64,000 nucleotides of DNA from an uncultured Candidatus Saccharibacteria bacterium (GTDB lineage Bacteria > Patescibacteriota > Minisyncoccia > Minisyncoccales > Staskawiczbacteraceae): NCBI GenBank assembly GCA_964475855.1, contig CAYZAV010000001.1, forward strand, positions 49,060 through 113,059, written 5' to 3'. The position numbers and the translations under genes are program-made. Position 1 is the stretch's first letter, and each line of letters opens with the position of its first letter. The notes under the pieces are model-generated. The model ran no database searches. It saw only the letters and a program-made list of their open reading frames with translations, and was not told the origin of the DNA. This document shows, in pieces, positions 1,290 through 54,656 of the stretch.

Positions 1290-1329
1290 GGCAAAATACT
1301 ACCACCTTTTACTTTTTTGTTCAATACAT

Positions 1330-1375
1330 AAAAAAATCCGCTGCGTGGTGTTCGCGGCGGATATATGTTATTTAC
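1330..1375 (-). terminator. rho-independent terminator (copy A of a 46-bp repeat)
   Basis: Minus-strand stem ATCCGCCGCG / CGCAGCGGAT (one G-U pair) with a 7-nt loop, followed by a T7 run. Lies directly 3' of the minus-strand gene ending at 1372. Identical 46 bp occur at 2485..2530. Confidence 0.55.
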
Positions 1376-1599
1376 TTGTCTTGTGACAAGATTTTTCTGG
1401 CGTCATCCAAGTTACTGTCCCGAGGCGCTTGTTCAATGGTCATACCCAGAGTAGCCCATCCTTCGGGAAGCCGTTTCTTAATTACGAGCAAGAGAGAAAC
1501 CAGACAGGCTTCTGGTTCTGCTTGTGCCTTTTCCCTGGCTTTCTCACCAAGCAGAGAAAACACCTCTTCCAAAAGTTGAACGGTCGGCTTAGTAAGCAT
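1372..1599 (-). CDS. small hypothetical protein (~75 aa); second gene of the repeat-flanked cassette
   Basis: ORF track 1372..1662. An internal ATG at 1599 (MLTKPTVQLLEE) is preceded by AAAGGAGAG (SD) and avoids overlap with the upstream gene. The stop codon lies inside the 46-bp repeat. Confidence 0.45.
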   Translation of the reverse strand: MLTKPTVQLLEEVFSLLGEKAREKAQAEPEACLVSLLLVIKKRLPEGWATLGMTIEQAPRDSNLDDARKILSQDK

Positions 1600-1621
1600 A
1601 CACTCTCCTTTCATTGCTGAG

Positions 1622-2386
1622 TTAGATTGTGTTCGGTTTGACAACATTAAGCACCACATCAAACAATCCTGTCACCCAAATTTCATCTTCGCGCATTTTC
1701 TCAGTAACTACCCGTTGCCAGAATTTTCTGACCAAATAGGCAAAGACAAAGAGTGCGCGGTCATCCACCCATTTTCCAGCCTCAAGTGCGATTGCCTGGA
1801 AATGCTTCTTGGCAAAAGCAAGCTTGTGCTTGGGCCATGGTTGGTGCCTTTTAATGAACTGGGCTTGTTCTTCTTTACTCCACACTGCATGTTCAGACAA
1901 GCGGCCTTGTTGAGGAATGACCCAGAATAAGATGGCCCGAAGCACATCTAAGCAACCTTCATCAACCGCTTGAGAGATGAAAGAACTTTGGAAACGAAAC
2001 ATGATCCGGACAACCTGGGTGGCTTCTTCGATAGGTTTGTGATCCGCATCAAAGAAAACACCATCAACAGAGTAAACTGACCAACCGAAGAATGGCGAAG
2101 AATACATTTCAATTCGGCGAATAGCTTCATCGACTGAAATGATTTTATTAGCAGGTTTTTTCTCACTGTAACGATCAGGGTCAAAGAGTGCTGGGAAGGC
2201 CTTAAATTCTTCGACCAAATTTCCCACATCATACTTCAGATAAGCCTTCACCTCTGTTTCTTCGTAGCCGTAACGCAGGGCATCAAAGATAGAACCATAG
2301 TAAGCGGCCCTTTTGGGAAAGTAAATTTCCACAAAAACGCTACGCTCGCTCCGATTAAAGAAATAACTCAACCCCGGTTCTTGCAT
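1622..2386 (-). CDS. hypothetical protein, 254 aa, no recognisable family
   Basis: Long ORF with coding-like composition. Forms a tight pair with the small ORF at 1372..1599. Flanked by identical 46-bp repeats. Confidence 0.55.
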   Translation of the reverse strand: MQEPGLSYFFNRSERSVFVEIYFPKRAAYYGSIFDALRYGYEETEVKAYLKYDVGNLVEEFKAFPALFDPDRYSEKKPANKIISVDEAIRRIEMYSSPFFGWSVYSVDGVFFDADHKPIEEATQVVRIMFRFQSSFISQAVDEGCLDVLRAILFWVIPQQGRLSEHAVWSKEEQAQFIKRHQPWPKHKLAFAKKHFQAIALEAGKWVDDRALFVFAYLVRKFWQRVVTEKMREDEIWVTGLFDVVLNVVKPNTI

Positions 2387-2484
2387 GCTTGTTTCCTTTT
2401 ATCAAAGGGATATTTTGGTAAAGAACAACTCACCTTTTAAATACCAAATCCACAGAAAATGTCAATGTAGACGGAATCGAATCG

Positions 2485-2530
2485 AAAAAAATCCGCTGCG
2501 TGGTGTTCGCGGCGGATATATGTTATTTAC
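2485..2530 (-). terminator. rho-independent terminator (copy B of the 46-bp repeat)
   Basis: Exact copy of AAAAAAATCCGCTGCGTGGTGTTCGCGGCGGATATATGTTATTTAC seen at 1330..1375. Minus-strand hairpin plus T-run, downstream of the 2814..3929 operon. Confidence 0.55.
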
Positions 2531-2591
2531 CTCGGTTAAGAGGTTTGTTGTTCTTTTTCCCTGGCGATACGAAGGTAATCATTGGCGAAGT

Positions 2592-2804
2592 TCATCGCGT
2601 AGTCAAAGCTTGGGGTGCTATGGTCGCCAAGCAAATACCAGTTCCGCGAATCGGAAAGGTCGCGCCTGAGTTCATACTCGCCATATCTTTGCGGCCAGGC
2701 AAAGCCGGCCTTTTTTTGATGGAGTCGACCACTTGGTCAATTACTGCCGGCAACGTAGACTGGGAAAGGAGTTTCCTTTGCAGATCTTCATGGGACATCA
2801 TCAT
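2592..2804 (-). CDS. small hypothetical protein (70 aa), possibly co-transcribed with the GT-B gene
   Basis: ORF 10 nt downstream of the stop of 2814..3929 on the same strand, upstream of the terminator copy B. No family recognised. Confidence 0.25.
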   Translation of the reverse strand: MMMSHEDLQRKLLSQSTLPAVIDQVVDSIKKRPALPGRKDMASMNSGATFPIRGTGICLATIAPQALTTR

Positions 2805-2813
2805 GACCTTTCT

Positions 2814-3929
2814 CTAGTCAGGAATCATGGAATATATCAACTCAGCCACACGGCTAGTTGCTTTGCCGTCAGTGGTGAATTCAGTGGTTTTTTCGACAAT
2901 CAAATAGCGATATTGAGGGTATTGAGCCAAGTTAAGTATTGCTTTGCAACCTTCTGGCACATATCCTGCGGAAATAACTTTTTTCCTACTGATAATCAAC
3001 TGGTCTTTGCCCTGTAAACCCGGCTGCAAGCTGACGCAGGGACGGCCCATGTACACGGCTTCAATGCCCACTGTGGAGAATCCAACAATGGTCAGGTCGG
3101 CTGCAAGCGCCAAAGTTTGGGAATCAATATTTGTGACCAGTTTGACGCGGTCGGTCACTGGCGCAATCGCCTTGGAAATTTTTTGAATGTCTTGCACTGG
3201 CATCCGCGGATGCAGCTTAATGGCGATATAAACGTTCGGCAACATGGGCAGCGCATGGATAATCAAATTAATGATGTCCAAATCCCAGTAACCGTACTGC
3301 TCTTTTTCTATCTCAAAGACATTGCCGGCGAAAAAAAATACGGTGCCCGGCAAGAATCCGATTTTTTCGCGGATCTTCTGGCGGTCCTGGCAAGAAAAAT
3401 TCTGACCCTTTTGCGCCAAATTGTCATAATGGGGATTTCCCGTCACCACCAGTTTTTCTGGCGGAAAACCAAGGTCCAGCATTTCATGTTTAGCGATGCT
3501 GTCCATGACAGCAATTTTGTCCGGTAGACAATCAAGTTCTTGTCCCGTCCGCTGGTCGGTAAAACGTCGGACATACCCCGCCCAGAAATCAAGCACTGAA
3601 AGCGTGGGGATTTTTGCCTTTCTGCCGGCTTGGACCAGACTATGCTCAATAAGCTCTTCCGTTTCTTGTTGGGCAGCGGTTCCGAGCAAAATCAAGTCCG
3701 GGGCGGCGGCCGCAAGCAGGACTTCCATTGACTGGCAAGATACATCCGGCAAGCCCATTTCTGACAGGGGCATAAAAGGCAGGCCAACGGTTTGTAATGC
3801 AGCAACCGTAAATTGCTGTCCGAAAATCAGAACTTCCAGATTTTCATCTGCCACCAGCTGTTTCAACACCGGCACCAAAGCGTTCATACCGCGCGGATGC
3901 GAAGCCGTGGCCAAAATTTTCTTCTTCAC
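2814..3929 (-). CDS. GT-B-fold surface-polysaccharide biosynthesis protein (UDP-GlcNAc 2-epimerase/PseG-like superfamily)
   Basis: 371-aa ORF with a two-Rossmann-domain-like layout (N-term MKKKILATASHPRGMN..., C-term GIEAVYMGRPCV...). Sits in a glycan-biosynthesis gene neighbourhood. Confidence 0.5.
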   Translation of the reverse strand: MKKKILATASHPRGMNALVPVLKQLVADENLEVLIFGQQFTVAALQTVGLPFMPLSEMGLPDVSCQSMEVLLAAAAPDLILLGTAAQQETEELIEHSLVQAGRKAKIPTLSVLDFWAGYVRRFTDQRTGQELDCLPDKIAVMDSIAKHEMLDLGFPPEKLVVTGNPHYDNLAQKGQNFSCQDRQKIREKIGFLPGTVFFFAGNVFEIEKEQYGYWDLDIINLIIHALPMLPNVYIAIKLHPRMPVQDIQKISKAIAPVTDRVKLVTNIDSQTLALAADLTIVGFSTVGIEAVYMGRPCVSLQPGLQGKDQLIISRKKVISAGYVPEGCKAILNLAQYPQYRYLIVEKTTEFTTDGKATSRVAELIYSMIPD

Positions 3930-44622: not shown

Positions 44623-45522
44623 ATGAAGGAGATAAAAACAGTAACAATTACTGATAAAAATTATCCTGCCGCCCTTAAAACCCTTTCTGATGCCCCGAAG
44701 ATACTATATTACCGCGGCTCATTACCCACACCAAAAGAAACCTGCGTTGCCGTTGTTGGAACTCGCCGGCCGTCTGAATATGGGCAACGGGTTGCTTTGG
44801 AAATTTCGGGAGAATTAGCGGATACAGGTATAACGATTGTTTCCGGCCTCGCACCGGGAATTGATACGTTCGCTCATACTGCCTGTGTTGAAAGGGGCAA
44901 ACGGACCATTGCAGTGACTGGCACGGGGTTGGATGAAAAAACCCTCTACCCGCAGCAGAACCTGAAATTATCACGGCAAATCATAGAAAACGGTGGCTGT
45001 CTTTTATCGGAATACGCGCCCAATACTCCGGGTTATGCGGGAAATTTTCCACAACGAAACCGTCTTGTCGTGGCTTTAAGTGAAGGTGTGGTAGTTATTG
45101 AAGCAAAAGAGAGATCCGGGTCACTCATTACCGCCAACCTTGCAAAACTGCAAAAGAAAAAACTATTCGCCGTACCGGGACAAATTTACATGGCAAATGC
45201 CAGCGGGCCAAATAAACTTATCAAAGAAGGCGCCCAGTTAGTTGAAAGCGCACAAGATGTTTTAGCCGTTTTAGGTAAAGATAATACTCGACTGTTTGTG
45301 GGAATAGGTAATTCCCCGTTAATCCCCCTGGGGGAATTACCTATTCCCACAAACAAGGCAGAAGCTGCTATCTTCACCGCCCTAAAAGAAGAATCGCTCT
45401 ACATTGACGCCATCATTGAAAAAACAAAATTAAGCGCACCAGTGGTCGGATCCACACTTGCGCTTATGGAAATTTCAGGTAAGGTAAGGAATCTTGGGGG
45501 GAACACCTACGCTATCGCATAA
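44623..45522 (+). CDS. dprA: DNA processing protein DprA (Smf)
   Basis: Rossmann-like DprA domain (VVGTRRPS, GLAPGIDTFAH, GGCLLSEY). Start at MKEIKTV. Confidence 0.85.
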   Translation: MKEIKTVTITDKNYPAALKTLSDAPKILYYRGSLPTPKETCVAVVGTRRPSEYGQRVALEISGELADTGITIVSGLAPGIDTFAHTACVERGKRTIAVTGTGLDEKTLYPQQNLKLSRQIIENGGCLLSEYAPNTPGYAGNFPQRNRLVVALSEGVVVIEAKERSGSLITANLAKLQKKKLFAVPGQIYMANASGPNKLIKEGAQLVESAQDVLAVLGKDNTRLFVGIGNSPLIPLGELPIPTNKAEAAIFTALKEESLYIDAIIEKTKLSAPVVGSTLALMEISGKVRNLGGNTYAIA

Positions 45523-50073: not shown

Positions 50074-50104
50074 AAAATATGAAAAAGTCTGATAACGTAT
50101 AGCC

Positions 50105-50168
50105 ATGCCCAGGTGGCGGAATTGGCAGACCTGCCTGCCGGCAGGCAGGTGCACTGGACTCAAAATCC
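50105..50168 (+). pseudogene. partial 5'-half duplicate of tRNA-Leu(CAA) carrying an inserted 18-bp perfect palindrome; no T-arm
   Basis: ATGCCCAGGTGGCGGAATTGGCAGAC is identical to the 5' end of the intact tRNA. It is followed by CTGCCTGCCGGCAGGCAG and an anticodon-loop-like TGGACTCAAAATCCA. No GTTCAAGTCC T-loop. Confidence 0.5.
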
Positions 50169-50250
50169 ATGTATTACGTATACGCTAGACTGCGGGAAAA
50201 ATATTTAAAGTCTGGAGTTGGTAAAGAGTGGCTTAGGCAAAAATAACCAT

Positions 50251-50334
50251 GCCCAGGTGGCGGAATTGGCAGACGCACGGGACTCAAAATCCCGCGAGCG
50301 CAAGCTCATGTGGGTTCAAGTCCCACCCCGGGCA
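50251..50334 (+). tRNA. tRNA-Leu (anticodon CAA), type II with long variable arm
   Basis: Acceptor GCCCAGG / CCCGGGC, D-arm GCGGAATTGGCAGAC, anticodon loop CUCAAAA, variable arm ~15 nt, T-loop GTGGGTTCAAGTCCCAC, discriminator A. Confidence 0.8.
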
Positions 50335-50341
50335 CACAAAT

Positions 50342-50934: not shown

Positions 50935-52179
50935 TTATTTGGGCAACGGAAATTTTTTACACAATGTTTTAACTTCTTGCGTCACTTTTTTAGCGGACTT
51001 TGGATTTGAAATAATTTCATTAATCCAACCGGCAATCAGTTTCATTTCTTTCTCTTTCATGCCACGACTGGTAATGGCCGGAGTTCCCAAGCGCAACCCC
51101 GAAGGCTTAAACGGCGGCGCCGGGTCAAACGGGATGGCATTTTTATTGGTACTCATGCCCACACTTTCCAGTAAATCCTGGGCTTCTGCCCCACTGATAT
51201 GTTTATTACGTAAATCAATCAGCATCAAGTGATTTTCTGTGCCGCCGCTGATCAAATTAAAATCGTAATTTTTCAGTTCCCCTGCCAATGCCTTAGCATT
51301 TTTTACAATCTCTGCGGCATATTTTTTAAAAGCTGGGGTACTGGCTTCTTTCAAACACACTGCAATGGCGGCAATAGCGTTTTCGTGCGGCCCGCCTTGA
51401 AGCCCTGGGAAAATAGCCTTATCAATTTTTTTTGCCAGATCAGCATCTTTTGCCAGTCCCTTTTTAGTTACCATAATAATTCCGCCCCGCGGGCCGCGTA
51501 ATGTTTTATGTGTGGTAGTGGTAACAATATGCACGTATGGCACGGGGCTTGGGTGCGAACCACCGGCCACCAACCCGGCAATATGGGCAATATCGGCTGC
51601 CAAATAAGCTCCAACACTGTCAGCAATTTCACCCAATTTTTTCCAGTCAAAAATACGCGGACAAGCGCTTCCCCCAATCCACATCAATTTTGGCTTGTGT
51701 TCCTTGGCCATTTTTTCCAACGCCACATAATCTAATAACTGAGTTTTTTCATCTAAGCCATATTGTACCGGTTTAAAAAACCGGCCGGAAAAACTTAATT
51801 TAAATCCATGCGTCAAATGCCCGCCCATGGGCAAGGCCATACCCATAATAGTATCGCCTGGTTCACACGTTGCCATGTACACCGCGGCGTTAGCCGGGCT
51901 TCCCGAATGTGGCTGCACATTGGCATGCTCCACTCCGAACAATTTTTTGGCACGTTCAATGGCAAGTGTTTCCACCTTATCAATAAACTGATTGCCACCA
52001 TAATAGCGTTTTCCTGGGTAGCCTTCGGCGTATTTGTCCGTCAACAACGACCCAAGCGCCTCCCGCACCGCCGGCGAACAATGGTTTTCAGAGGGAATCA
52101 GCTGCAACGAAGTTTTCTGGCGGTCGCCTTCCAAGTCAATTAATTTGGCGATTTGCGCATCTTGCTTACTCAATTTCAT
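50935..52179 (-). CDS. glyA: serine hydroxymethyltransferase
   Basis: PLP-lysine block VTTTTHKTLRGPRGG and other conserved SHMT blocks. Start at MKLSKQDAQ. Confidence 0.95.
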   Translation of the reverse strand: MKLSKQDAQIAKLIDLEGDRQKTSLQLIPSENHCSPAVREALGSLLTDKYAEGYPGKRYYGGNQFIDKVETLAIERAKKLFGVEHANVQPHSGSPANAAVYMATCEPGDTIMGMALPMGGHLTHGFKLSFSGRFFKPVQYGLDEKTQLLDYVALEKMAKEHKPKLMWIGGSACPRIFDWKKLGEIADSVGAYLAADIAHIAGLVAGGSHPSPVPYVHIVTTTTHKTLRGPRGGIIMVTKKGLAKDADLAKKIDKAIFPGLQGGPHENAIAAIAVCLKEASTPAFKKYAAEIVKNAKALAGELKNYDFNLISGGTENHLMLIDLRNKHISGAEAQDLLESVGMSTNKNAIPFDPAPPFKPSGLRLGTPAITSRGMKEKEMKLIAGWINEIISNPKSAKKVTQEVKTLCKKFPLPK

Positions 52180-53164
52180 AGAATTTGGATAATATTTTTT
52201 TCTTAATTCTATAACTATTACCATGCTTTATCAATCCCAAATATGATGCCATATTTTTCCTGTTTGATAATGTAAATGCTCTCTGCTTGGTTTTTGTACG
52301 CAATATTTTGTGGTCCTTAAAATTAACCCACCCCAAAAAATCCACGCCGGATGAAACCGTTTTGATAAAAACTTTTTTTGGATGAAGTTGCAGTTTCAAC
52401 TTTTATTCCAAAAAGTCAGCTAATTTTGATATTAATTCTTGAAGATAATCTTTGTTTTCTGAAAAAATTACGAAATCATCAGCATATCTGATGTAATATT
52501 TCGCTTTTAATTTGTGTTTTACAAACTGATCAAATTCGTTCATGTATATGTTGCAGAATAATTGTGAAGTCAAGTTTCCCAGTGGTAGGCCAACGCCGGG
52601 TTTCCCTGCGTTAAAACTGGAAATGATATTTTCTAGCAAAGATATTAACCGCTTATCGGCAATATATTGACGTAAAATTCTAATCAAAGCAACCTGGTCA
52701 ATAGAATGGAAAAACTTTTTAATATCACATTTTAATATCCAACAGGTACGAGTGCCATTTTTGCTCACCTTGTAGTAAAAATCCCTAAATCTTCTATTAG
52801 CACGATGTGTACTCTTTTCCAGCCTACACGAAAAAGAGTCCGAAATGAAGGTATCATCGAAAAACGGATACAAAACACGATATAGCGCATGGTGCAAAAG
52901 CCGGTCGCGTACCGAAGCTTTATGAATAATCCGCGGCTTAGGATCATTAATCTTAAATTCTTGGTATCCGCCATGCAGGTATGTGTCATTGGCTAAATCG
53001 TGGTGAAGTGTTAGGATATTATCCATCAAGTAAAATTCAAATTCCCGTACATCTTTTTTGTCCTTTTTGCCTCTGACAAACTCTTCAAAGGCCCAAAGCA
53101 AATTCTGTACGTGAATAATATCATCAAACCTATGCCGCAGTTGAATCTTCATAGCGATAATCAA
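52166..53164 (-). CDS. diversity-generating-retroelement reverse transcriptase, interrupted by an in-frame TAA at 52403..52405 (possible pseudogene, sequencing error or readthrough)
   Basis: RT motifs incl. GLPLGNLTSQLFCNIY (DGR-type [I/L]GxxxSQ in motif 4) and YIRYADDFVIF (YxDD). Thumb-like KLQLHPKK...GVDFLGW continues in the same frame after the stop. Confidence 0.75.
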
Positions 53165-53196
53165 AGCCCTTTAAGCCCCCCCCCACGCAATTTAGC

Positions 53197-53529
53197 TTGA
53201 CACTCATCCAAAAGCTGGTTTCAGTTTACAAATTGTGGCACGAAATTTTGCCCCATTTTTCTAATAATTCAAAGTATACCCTGGGGCATAAAATTGATTC
53301 CTTCTTTTTGGAAACCATTGAACGGGTGATAAAAGCCGGCTACGCTAGCAAAGCCGAAAAAGAACTATTCCTATTGGGCGCTTCCGCCAAGCTGGATATG
53401 CTTAAGTTTTTCCTGCAAATCGCCTGGAACATAAAATCGGTAGATAATAAAAAATACATTTTGCTTTCCGAAAAATTAAACGAAGTTGGCAGGATGTTGG
53501 GCGGATGGATAAAATCCCTCAGACAGTAA
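53197..53529 (+). CDS. four-helix-bundle protein of the Avd (accessory variability determinant) family, divergent from the RT
   Basis: 110 aa. SKYTLGHKIDSFFLETIERVIKAGYA...LDMLKFFLQIAWNIK pattern of the TIGR02436 / 23S-rRNA-IVS four-helix-bundle family. Located between RT and TR but on the opposite strand. Confidence 0.55.
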   Translation: MTLIQKLVSVYKLWHEILPHFSNNSKYTLGHKIDSFFLETIERVIKAGYASKAEKELFLLGASAKLDMLKFFLQIAWNIKSVDNKKYILLSEKLNEVGRMLGGWIKSLRQ

Positions 53530-53565
53530 AAACCACCTCAAAAAAGGTGGTAAAAACAAAGAGAG

Positions 53566-53693
53566 TTGCGGACGGCGGCGAAACGACAATTCGCATTCCA
53601 GCTATTGTCATACCAATTCAGGTTCAACTTACGCTTGGAGTCGTACTCGTTCTGATAGACCACGCTGTGGTTGTCACCCGGGTTACGCCACAC
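53566..53693 (-). repeat. DGR template repeat (TR)
   Basis: Matches 54037..54164 except at 23 positions, where this copy always has T on the plus strand (A on the coding minus strand) and the other copy has C, G or A. Intergenic. Confidence 0.85.
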
Positions 53694-53953
53694 AAAATAT
53701 GCAAGATATCTTCCCTGCCACCACCCCTCAAATACTTTCAGAGTTGTATCTTATTCGGTATCTACAATATACCCTGATATCTTGCACCAAGTATCTTTAT
53801 TTTTTAAAAAATCAGGGGCGACTCTCAAAGAAGCCTTGGCCGCTTTGAATCTGCATAATCCTGAAATATAGAATTCGGCTGCCCGAAGCCGTAACCTCAA
53901 GCATAATAACCTACTATCCAAATTCATCTTACCTATTTTATAAAAAAAGAAAA

Positions 53954-53977
53954 GCCATATTCGTAAACGAATATGGC
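53954..53977 (-). terminator. 10-bp-stem hairpin plus T-run ~55 nt downstream of VR (terminator and possible DGR hairpin)
   Basis: GCCATATTCG-taaa-CGAATATGGC. On the minus strand it is followed by TTTTCTTTTTTTAT. Confidence 0.5.
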
Positions 53978-54032
53978 TCTGCTCCAAGGCTCCACAAATC
54001 CATTTGGGAACCAGAGAACCAAGTGACCAATT

Positions 54033-54656
54033 TTACTTGCGGACGGCGGCGAAACGACAACGCGCAAACCAGCTACGGCCATACCAATACAGGAGCAACC
54101 AACGCATGGAGTCGCACTCGCGCAGACAGACCACGCTGCGGCGGCCACCCGGGTCACGCCACACTTTCCCCAATGCAATGATTGGGTACTTGCGTTGCAA
54201 CTGTGAGTGTTGCTCGCCAACGGCCAACACGTCTTCGGGGTCAGCAGGCCGGAAACCTTCTTTTTCCATAGCCGCAATGACGTCGTCAGATTCCATATTA
54301 CGGTCAAAATGGAAGAAAGTTATTTCCTTTTCCTGCTTGCCCATGCCGGTCAGTAGGAAACGCTCCTGGGTTATATCCTTATCATCCCAGTCATACTTCC
54401 CCGCCGTGATCATCTGGGCTAAGGTTCGGGAATAGTCCACCGTCACCTTGACGGTTTCGCGAACCACTACCTTGCCGCCGTTAATGATCAGTTCGGCGAT
54501 CTGGTTGATGAGGGATTCTCCCTCGGGCTTAACCAGCTTGCGGAAGATAGCGTCAGCATCGCCTCCGCGTTGCTGGAGCGCCTTGACCAACGCCTGGATG
54601 AAACTCATCACGACGCCAACGTAAGAAACCGATTCGCAACTCTTCATGGTACGCAC
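54033..54656 (-). CDS. DGR target protein (207 aa) with variable C-terminal ~43 residues
   Basis: VR covers the last ~43 codons up to the stop (…KVWRDPGGRRSVVCLRECDSMRWLLLYWYGRSWFARCRFAAVRK). GC-rich relative to the RT. Confidence 0.75.
   Translation of the reverse strand: MRTMKSCESVSYVGVVMSFIQALVKALQQRGGDADAIFRKLVKPEGESLINQIAELIINGGKVVVRETVKVTVDYSRTLAQMITAGKYDWDDKDITQERFLLTGMGKQEKEITFFHFDRNMESDDVIAAMEKEGFRPADPEDVLAVGEQHSQLQRKYPIIALGKVWRDPGGRRSVVCLRECDSMRWLLLYWYGRSWFARCRFAAVRK
54037..54164 (-). repeat. DGR variable repeat (VR) at 3' end of target gene
   Basis: See TR. The GC-rich 3' end (CGTTTCGCCGCCGTCCGCAA on the coding strand), identical in both copies, is consistent with an IMH-like region. 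Confidence 0.85.

Follow-up and report, generated by a model that had tools for sequence, protein, structure and literature searches.

The stretch of DNA analysed here (the window) comprises 64,000 nt of contig CAYZAV010000001.1 from an uncultured Candidatus Saccharibacteria bacterium. Near its start, it contains a compact two-gene unit, hereafter the A–B cassette, which is bounded by two identical copies of a 46-bp repeat (R). All of the genes in this region are located on the minus strand. In the direction of transcription, a GT-B-like gene and a small gene are followed by the upstream copy of the repeat, R(up), the promoter and leader of the cassette, genes A and B, the downstream copy, R(down), and a DegT/Fe-ADH fusion gene, the start of which was placed at 1289 by gene calling and Pfam. 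The features of the locus, in the same order, are as follows:

2814–3929, minus strand: GT-B/epimerase_2-like gene, host context
2536–2804, minus strand: host small gene, translationally coupled to the GT-B-like gene; two reading frames with a frameshift at an A7 run (~2712–2718)
2485–2530, minus strand: R(up), predicted intrinsic terminator (hairpin and U7), 5 nt past the stop codon of the host small gene, as judged from the exact match and the sequence context
2387–2484 (98 nt), minus strand: putative promoter and 5′ leader of the cassette, read from the sequence
2460–2465, minus strand: putative −35 box of the cassette, TTGACA
2438–2443, minus strand: TATTTA of the putative extended −10 box, TGgTATTTA
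2417–2426, minus strand: leader motif GTTCTTTACC, typical of the family
2400–2409, minus strand: leader motif CCCTTTGATA, typical of the family
2391–2399, minus strand: putative ribosome-binding site of A, AAAGGAAAC
1622–2386, minus strand: gene A, an open reading frame (ORF) of 254 aa
1372–1599, minus strand: gene B, 75 aa (75 or 80 aa, depending on the gene caller), starting 22 nt past A behind a ribosome-binding site
1330–1375, minus strand: R(down), the sole predicted terminator of the A–B unit, directly adjoining the promoter of the DegT fusion gene
1290–1329, minus strand: putative promoter of the DegT/Fe-ADH fusion gene (TTGAAC, 17 nt, TAGTAT), intact and directly past R(down)

One copy of R, the promoter and leader, A and B together make up a unit of 1,155 bp, which breaks an otherwise co-directional cluster of sugar-modification genes. 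The stop codon of B (TAA, 1372–1374) falls within R(down). Judging from this arrangement, the A–B unit appears to be a complete transcription unit, with a terminator on each side insulating it. No Rfam family was matched in the cassette. Neither a transposase nor an integrase was detected in or beside the insert, as A and B alone are found between the repeats and the flanks code for sugar-modification enzymes; the 20-kb locus around the cassette is likewise devoid of integrases. The host small gene, together with its terminator R(up), is the presumed target. Its frameshift is identical in five assemblies (three from ENA and two from Logan), and the gene is thus either a real pseudogene or subject to a programmed shift. 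It has no family match in Pfam, NCBIfam, PHROGs or PADLOC. It is not a B homologue, and the idea that it represents a decayed B or an older cassette was rejected.

The 46-mer AAAAAAATCCGCTGCGTGGTGTTCGCGGCGGATATATGTTATTTAC occurs in the 64-kb window in two copies, at 1330–1375 and 2485–2530, with no mismatches between them, and it was also recovered in the repeat listing of the window as family D6 with a spacing of 1155. No third copy was found in the window at up to three mismatches, and shuffled sequences (n = 100) predict none. With up to eight mismatches allowed, only the window sites were retrieved, and the repeat was absent from ~0.95 Mb of sequence from other loci, among them a second contig of this genome. 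The core of R is absent from the Joint Genome Institute (JGI) metagenomes as well. On the minus strand, R is predicted to form a hairpin followed by U7 (ΔG −14.4 kcal/mol; z = −3.8; fold of the copy at 1330–1375), and the stem-loop was also listed on the plus strand by the terminator scan. Based on these predictions, R appears to be an intrinsic-terminator-like element. The initial annotation had described a 46-mer confined to two sites of the window, each copy a minus-strand hairpin with a T7 terminator, enclosing genes for proteins of 254 and about 75 aa, the smaller of which ends inside the repeat. Exact-match searching, folding and ORF and gene calling bore out this description, and the search beyond the window yielded no further copy in the ~97 kb of the genome that was covered. 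Both copies of R and an identical layout are present in four independent ENA assemblies, and the duplication is therefore not an assembly artefact.

A 21-nt inverted repeat (18/21) was also noticed at this site, with arms at 2420–2440 and 2536–2556 on either side of R(up) and the cassette promoter. The last seven codons of the host gene form one arm, and the other lies in the −10/leader region of the cassette. This inverted repeat scored above all of 60 shuffles, was not found at 12 other loci with flanking repeats and is specific to the window.

Neither A nor B matches any family in Pfam, NCBIfam, PHROG or PADLOC. No homology to known toxins or antitoxins was found for either protein in PADLOC, Pfam and NCBIfam, no methyltransferase or nuclease domain was detected, and there is no match to Phage_integrase or Resolvase. 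The PADLOC defence models identified no family for A, B or the host small gene. Profile searches with both proteins returned no named family and revealed a conserved A–B pair. The earlier view of the two proteins as having no recognisable families therefore stands with respect to named families, but both, by sequence comparison, appear to be members of conserved, unnamed families.

In total, 120 homologues of A were retrieved, sharing 40–69% identity, and nearly all of them are approximately 255 aa in length and unnamed. Nearly all originate from metagenome-assembled genomes (MAGs) of the candidate phyla radiation (CPR)/Patescibacteria, the others being a few from Gemmataceae and one from a gammaproteobacterial MAG. 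A profile search of 1.84 billion representatives yielded 317 clusters only, and the longer or distant members of the A family carry no informative domains. The AlphaFold2 model of A, built from a 42-sequence alignment, is of high predicted quality (pLDDT 87, pTM 0.85) and shows three beta-hairpins packed on helices. Foldseek comparison of this model with PDB and BFVD gave no meaningful fold match (TM < 0.25), and the modelled fold of A is unrecognised among known folds. A gasdermin-like match in a profile search of PDB sequences (E = 0.06) was regarded as noise. A weak Spherulin4 (Pfam) match, seen over ~35 residues in 10 of 42 A homologues (best E-value, 0.009), was rejected because the model of A, judged from its secondary structure, is not a barrel. 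The invariant polar residues of A are Y8, Y22, Y95, S103, E120, E121 and E233.

The second protein, B, is a small all-helical protein with the conserved motif DPExxLvsLL and no recognised DNA-binding domain. A hidden Markov model (HMM) of the B family, built from ORFs located beside A homologues, scores the ORF of the window with an E-value of 1.6 × 10−29. In a word-indexed search B had appeared to be an orphan; this was a sensitivity artefact, overturned by the HMM searches of the loci. The single-sequence AlphaFold2 model of B is of low confidence (pLDDT 63) and too poor for a fold search.

For the comparative analysis, 35 loci from species-representative genomes and 80 loci from metagenomes were used (individual loci are denoted by L numbers). 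A gene of the B family follows A in 26 of the 35 genome loci, and in 75 of the 86 testable unique loci overall, which points to A–B being a conserved operon. In the other 11 loci (13%) A has no detectable B; in L102, for instance, A is followed directly by a terminator. The distribution of A–B in CPR genomes is sporadic, often with several divergent copies. Decayed copies are occasionally found, with A frameshifted in L087 and split in L036. A second copy is present on another contig of the genome from which the window derives (L045, 6001–7042), where A is 68% identical and B is 78 aa long. This copy has a pheS-like gene on one side, a ZIP transporter gene on the other and no detectable flanking repeat, and several other MAGs also contain two copies. 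No homologues of A were found among the viral contigs of IMG/VR, the GenBank phages of INPHARED or the plasmids of PLSDB, and a phage or plasmid origin of A–B was rejected on this ground. The neighbors of A–B are housekeeping and polysaccharide genes, not defence islands, and the commonest domains among 148 ORFs beside the cassettes are those of polysaccharide-synthesis enzymes.

To find direct repeats, the DNA upstream and downstream of each A was compared by blastn-short (E < 10−3), with windows shifted elsewhere in the same loci serving as controls. Direct repeats flank A in 13 of 57 testable unique loci, in comparison to 2 of 174 control windows (Fisher p = 2.8 × 10−7), and the odds of flanking repeats are thus 25-fold above those of the controls. 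One of these cases, L018, turned out to consist of two paralogous tRNA-Ala genes and not of a duplication; the true count is therefore 12 of 57, and the conclusion is unchanged. Further repeats were found at three loci with short flanks (L012, L064 and L092). The repeat sequence differs from locus to locus and its length ranges from 20 to 128 bp. In 12 of ~15 cases, the repeats are spaced 1155–1466 bp apart, and the unit that they bound accordingly holds A–B only. The sequences repeated at individual loci are the following:

L012: EF-G gene (intact), last 41 codons; these recur past the cassette as an orphan fragment that has a terminator of its own
L102: tRNA gene, 23 bp of the 3′ end
L071: region beside a tRNA 3′ end
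L054: dnaE 3′ end; the displaced copy, as read from the sequence, keeps a stop codon and a terminator shared with the neighboring gene
L067: glycosyltransferase gene, 3′ end
L087: gpm-like gene, first 30 codons with the start codon
L114: serine recombinase gene (511 aa), 3′ end (635–709; 1971–3506)
L092: terminator region, as in the window
L064: promoter/leader

The common theme of the repeats is host gene ends, not terminators. The proposal of the initial annotation that a cassette had been inserted with duplication of a terminator is supported by the repeats flanking the family and by the occurrence of discrete units in unrelated contexts. Its other suggestion, of a terminator-associated element, does not hold in general, as at other loci the duplicated sequence is the 3′ end of a protein-coding or tRNA gene, the 5′ end of a gene or a promoter/leader.

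The two copies of the repeat were compared as coding sequences at two loci. In L012 they differ at 16 nt, with 14 synonymous and one non-synonymous codons, and in L087 at 12 nt, with 10 synonymous and one non-synonymous codons. This skew indicates that at both loci the two copies evolved under coding constraint in different genomes, whereas an orphan duplicate generated in situ would decay neutrally. The cassette is thus likely to have arrived with its own copy of the target end, and a carried-in copy of this kind is the classical footprint of Campbell-type integration.

The boundaries of the cassettes are sharp. Those of L008, L027, L059 and L089 are 81–86% identical over 1.14–1.33 kb, while their flanks are unrelated on both sides. 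In all six pairwise comparisons of these loci, homology sets in at the promoter/leader, 40–90 bp ahead of A, and breaks off just past the B terminator; in L008 the homology end of this cluster falls inside the repeats. The same behavior was observed for the pairs L067/L070, L081/L082 and L116/L125. A promoter layout recurs across homologous loci, consisting of TTGAC[A/T], 16–17 nt, a TATAA-like box and a YTTTGAYA-type motif. Promoter-like boxes are present in every cassette inspected, together with a conserved leader motif (approximately GGTCTTTGACA or GTTCTTTAC) located 18–62 nt before the start codon and, in nearly all cassettes, 10–15 nt past the −10 box. The motif was found in 27 of 80 loci versus 1.35% of control segments. 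In L064, a cassette-type promoter and leader also precede the next, unrelated gene. The examined cassettes other than that of the window have a terminator of their own after B, and in the window R serves in this capacity. As R holds the stop codon of B and the sole terminator, it fits being a part of the incoming cassette as well as being the target. In a separate case, the cassettes of L054 (3836–5118) and L056 (2562–3797) are 98.9% identical and share the dnaE side, and their left flanks are unrelated; L056 has no upstream repeat and abuts galU. The pair reflects recombination between two copies of the cassette or, alternatively, a chimeric assembly.

No known recombinase was found inside any of the repeat-bounded units, and no terminal inverted repeats were found at the cassette ends. 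A Phage_integrase domain is encoded by only 2 of the 148 neighboring ORFs, and a linked integrase was therefore rejected as the general mover. A serine recombinase adjoins the cassette only in L114 and probably in L135. Those A proteins that are each 65–67% identical to A of the window are associated with different targets (a terminator, dnaE, gpm and a serine recombinase end), which argues against a sequence-specific integrase.

Traces of serine recombinase genes were seen at several other loci. Remnants of the 3′ end (approximately the last 25 codons) are found on both sides of the cassettes of L008 and L082 and next to that of L102 (5719–5784), and the contig end of L135, as read from the sequence, resembles such a recombinase 3′ end. 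The gene itself is intact only in L114. Three copies of the recombinase end are present in L008 (5843–7776), the third of them after a cupin cassette, giving an array-like arrangement in which A–B is separated from the cupin cassette.

Short contigs were also inspected for circular forms. Contig L133 (Logan, 1–1215) contains no host DNA; the cassette terminator runs straight into the cassette promoter, with a terminal overlap of 29 nt and a unit of 1186 bp. A circle, a tandem copy and a promoter-type repeat would each account for this contig. No terminal overlap was found in L131, L132 and L134–L137 (Logan) or in 13 short JGI contigs.

Taken together, these data place the cassette in a CPR-centred family, not described before, of small mobile units of two genes, which insert at gene ends with long direct repeats and have no recognisable recombinase. 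For the window itself, we consider it probable that the A–B unit is an inserted mobile cassette, acquired by a single crossover on a short sequence common to cassette and target; the comparative evidence supports such an insertion with duplication of the terminator. The incoming cassette would carry a short sequence the same as, or similar to, a host gene end, and Campbell-type crossover at this point would leave the cassette flanked by direct repeats of that sequence. In the window, the recombining sequence would have been the 46-bp intrinsic terminator R. Following the insertion, the upstream host operon would end at R(up) and the cassette at R(down), leaving the promoter of the DegT fusion gene untouched. 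The model presupposes a circular or otherwise repeat-bearing intermediate and its uptake between cells, and the recombination may be performed either by the homologous recombination machinery of the host acting on short homology, or by a cassette-encoded activity of a new type. In our view, A–B most likely persists through a selfish, addictive or conflict-related role.

Several observations weigh against integration by single crossover. Repeats of 20–46 bp are short for RecA-type recombination. Approximately three quarters of the family loci have no detectable repeats, and no near-identical copies were found at different sites of one genome, so that recent activity is not evident. The copies of R are 100% identical, and the window alone is therefore compatible with a carried-in copy or with in-situ duplication. 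The G–C content of the cassette is the same as that of its surroundings. No empty site was found for this locus, every contig of this population being either occupied or broken at R; the closest orthologue of the GT-B-like gene is 49% identical and not syntenic, and relatives consequently offer no empty-site comparison. No excised circle was observed for this locus either. One candidate, L005 (Logan, 1,185 bp, corresponding to the unit and 30 nt), does not count as evidence for a circle, as it starts exactly at the first base of R, where a branch of the de Bruijn graph is expected. Finally, the search for R in the genome of origin was limited to the 64 kb of the window and ~33 kb of additional sequence.

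Four other explanations were weighed against this model. According to one of them, the DNA of the cassette was joined by illegitimate or homology-facilitated illegitimate recombination after uptake, and the terminator between the joints was copied on both sides in situ; the joining microhomology would then be the GTAA with which B ends and R begins. The complete identity of the R copies is what a recent duplication would produce, family repeats of 20–128 bp fit no transposase with a fixed stagger, the same phenomenon has been described for restriction-modification genes (PMC2853133), and foreign DNA is known to enter genomes by homology-facilitated illegitimate recombination (PMC3240628). However, the almost exclusively synonymous differences in L012 and L087 would require a later interspecies transfer via flanking homology. 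Moreover, given that the stop codon of B and the only terminator of the unit lie in R and that other cassettes carry a terminator of their own, it is easier to envisage R as a part of the incoming cassette. In-situ duplication is thus judged rather unlikely. It is possible, if doubtful, that A–B acts, as the initial annotation had considered, as a toxin-antitoxin-like addiction module or in anti-phage defence and that the repeats are secondary, with rare insertions retained because loss of the module is penalised in the way suggested for restriction-modification systems. The operon of two genes, the second of them small, its sporadic multi-copy distribution, the decayed copies of L087 and L036 and the analogy with restriction-modification genes flanked by long repeats are in line with such a role. 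On the other hand, PADLOC, Pfam and NCBIfam gave no matches, the surrounding genes serve housekeeping and polysaccharide functions, no member of the family occurs in the phage, plasmid and viral collections, and the 11 of 86 loci in which A stands without B argue weakly against A being a toxin neutralised by B.

The unit may also be an autonomous element of ~1.2 kb, in which A is a recombinase of a new fold and B its regulatory or directionality partner, catalysing excision and integration at a short "address" sequence carried by the element. Several features would be explained in this way: A is the sole gene common to all of the repeat-bounded units, known integrases are lacking inside them and rare nearby, a large and a small gene parallel an integrase and its excisionase, and the architecture mimics att sites, with a duplicated tRNA 3′ end and replacement ends that keep the target gene intact. 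The direct junction of terminator and promoter in L133, free of host DNA, is also compatible with an element of this type. Nevertheless, A resembles the tyrosine, serine, DDE, HUH and Cas1 recombinases neither in sequence nor in fold, its close relatives are found at unrelated targets, unlike those of sequence-specific integrases, the majority of the loci have no repeats, and near-identical copies at several sites are lacking altogether; we regard a recombinase function of A as quite improbable. Coincidence, finally, would mean that R is nothing more than a terminator sequence employed at two places, through paralogy or conversion, and that A–B is an ordinary, vertically inherited pair. The unremarkable composition and the failure to find an empty site would be expected in that case. 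Identity at 46 of 46 positions is not expected by chance, though, no other copy of R is present in ~97 kb of the genome, flanking by repeats is a family-wide and statistically supported property, and the cassettes occur with sharp boundaries in unrelated contexts, which makes coincidence extremely improbable.

Among the known systems, insertion with long target duplication appears, by analogy, to be the nearest precedent for the A–B family. Described for restriction-modification genes, it involves no mobility gene and produces repeats of tens of bp, some of them 46 bp long (PMC2853133); the repeats often span gene starts or stops, leaving the host genes intact, and are statistically enriched around these genes, the species concerned are mostly naturally competent, and the mechanism is unexplained (Furuta, Abe and Kobayashi 2010, PMC2853133). 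Similarly, the A–B unit has neither a transposase nor an integrase, and its repeats are variable, tens of bp in length, located at gene ends and enriched. Repeats longer than ~30 bp, as in such insertions, are found in the window (46 bp, exact, spacing 1155). The A–B family differs in its cargo, which is not a restriction-modification system, and in its hosts, which are CPR bacteria and belong to another phylum. It differs from simple long target duplication also in that the copies of the repeat at no fewer than two loci (at least L012 and L087) evolved separately as coding sequence, which points to a carried-in copy and is closer to integrase-type elements with replacement gene ends.

Integrase-mediated elements provide a second comparison, and islands with dusA-specific integrases are examples of such elements at protein-gene ends (PMC4482086). 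As in these elements, the A–B repeats correspond to the end of the target gene, with the element supplying a replacement 3′ or 5′ end, and tRNA 3′ ends are included among the targets. An att-like repeat at a gene end is seen both in the window, where the terminator is located 5 nt past the host gene, and in the family (EF-G, dnaE, gpm and tRNA). In contrast to integrase-type elements, the A–B unit of 1.15–1.5 kb contains no tyrosine or serine recombinase, and related cassettes use unrelated targets. Like integron cassettes, A–B is ~1 kb in size and bounded by repeated, hairpin-capable sites, and in L008 the A–B and cupin cassettes are parted by the same repeat. Unlike them, it has its own promoter, its repeats are host gene ends without an attC-type core, and no IntI or attI is adjacent. 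The lack of a transposase and of terminal inverted repeats, as well as a repeat length that is not fixed (20–128 bp), distinguish A–B from insertion sequences and transposons. With type II toxin-antitoxin systems it shares the compact operon of a large and a small gene, the patchy multi-copy distribution and occasional decay; it differs in having no homology to known toxins or antitoxins and in the occurrence of A alone at 13% of the loci.

Apart from the cassette, the window harbors a diversity-generating retroelement (52166–54656), the components of which are as follows:

52403–53164, minus strand: reverse transcriptase ORF with a YADD motif
53197–53529: Avd-like ORF
53566–53693: template repeat
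54037–54164: variable repeat, within the 3′ end of the target ORF (54033–54656)

All of the 23 mismatches between the template and variable repeats fall at T of the plus strand of the template (A on the coding strand), which is the signature of adenine mutagenesis. In addition, the 5′ part of tRNA-Leu(CAA) (50251–50335) has a 32-nt duplicate (97% identity; 50099–50130 versus 50243–50274) 144 bp upstream, possibly left behind by a further integration or by a rearrangement. At 45293–45355, there is a perfect inverted repeat of 25 nt around a 13-nt spacer.

The mobile DNA of CPR/Patescibacteria is poorly charted, and most of the known units that move without a recognisable mobility gene are restriction-modification systems, for which the mechanism is still unexplained. 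The A–B family combines a conserved gene pair, sharp promoter-to-terminator limits, repeats derived from host gene ends, carried copies of the target and a confidently modelled protein A of no known fold. With two genes in 1.2 kb, it offers a small and tractable system for studying how insertion with long target duplication works, and for asking whether a new recombination or addiction protein underlies the insertion. If A were a homology-addressed integrase, directing the cassette to chromosomal sites that match its address sequence, this would explain the presence of close relatives at terminators, tRNA ends and the ends of EF-G, dnaE and gpm genes. With respect to annotation, A–B represents a recurring accessory insert in surface-polysaccharide and housekeeping loci, which it interrupts but does not disrupt.

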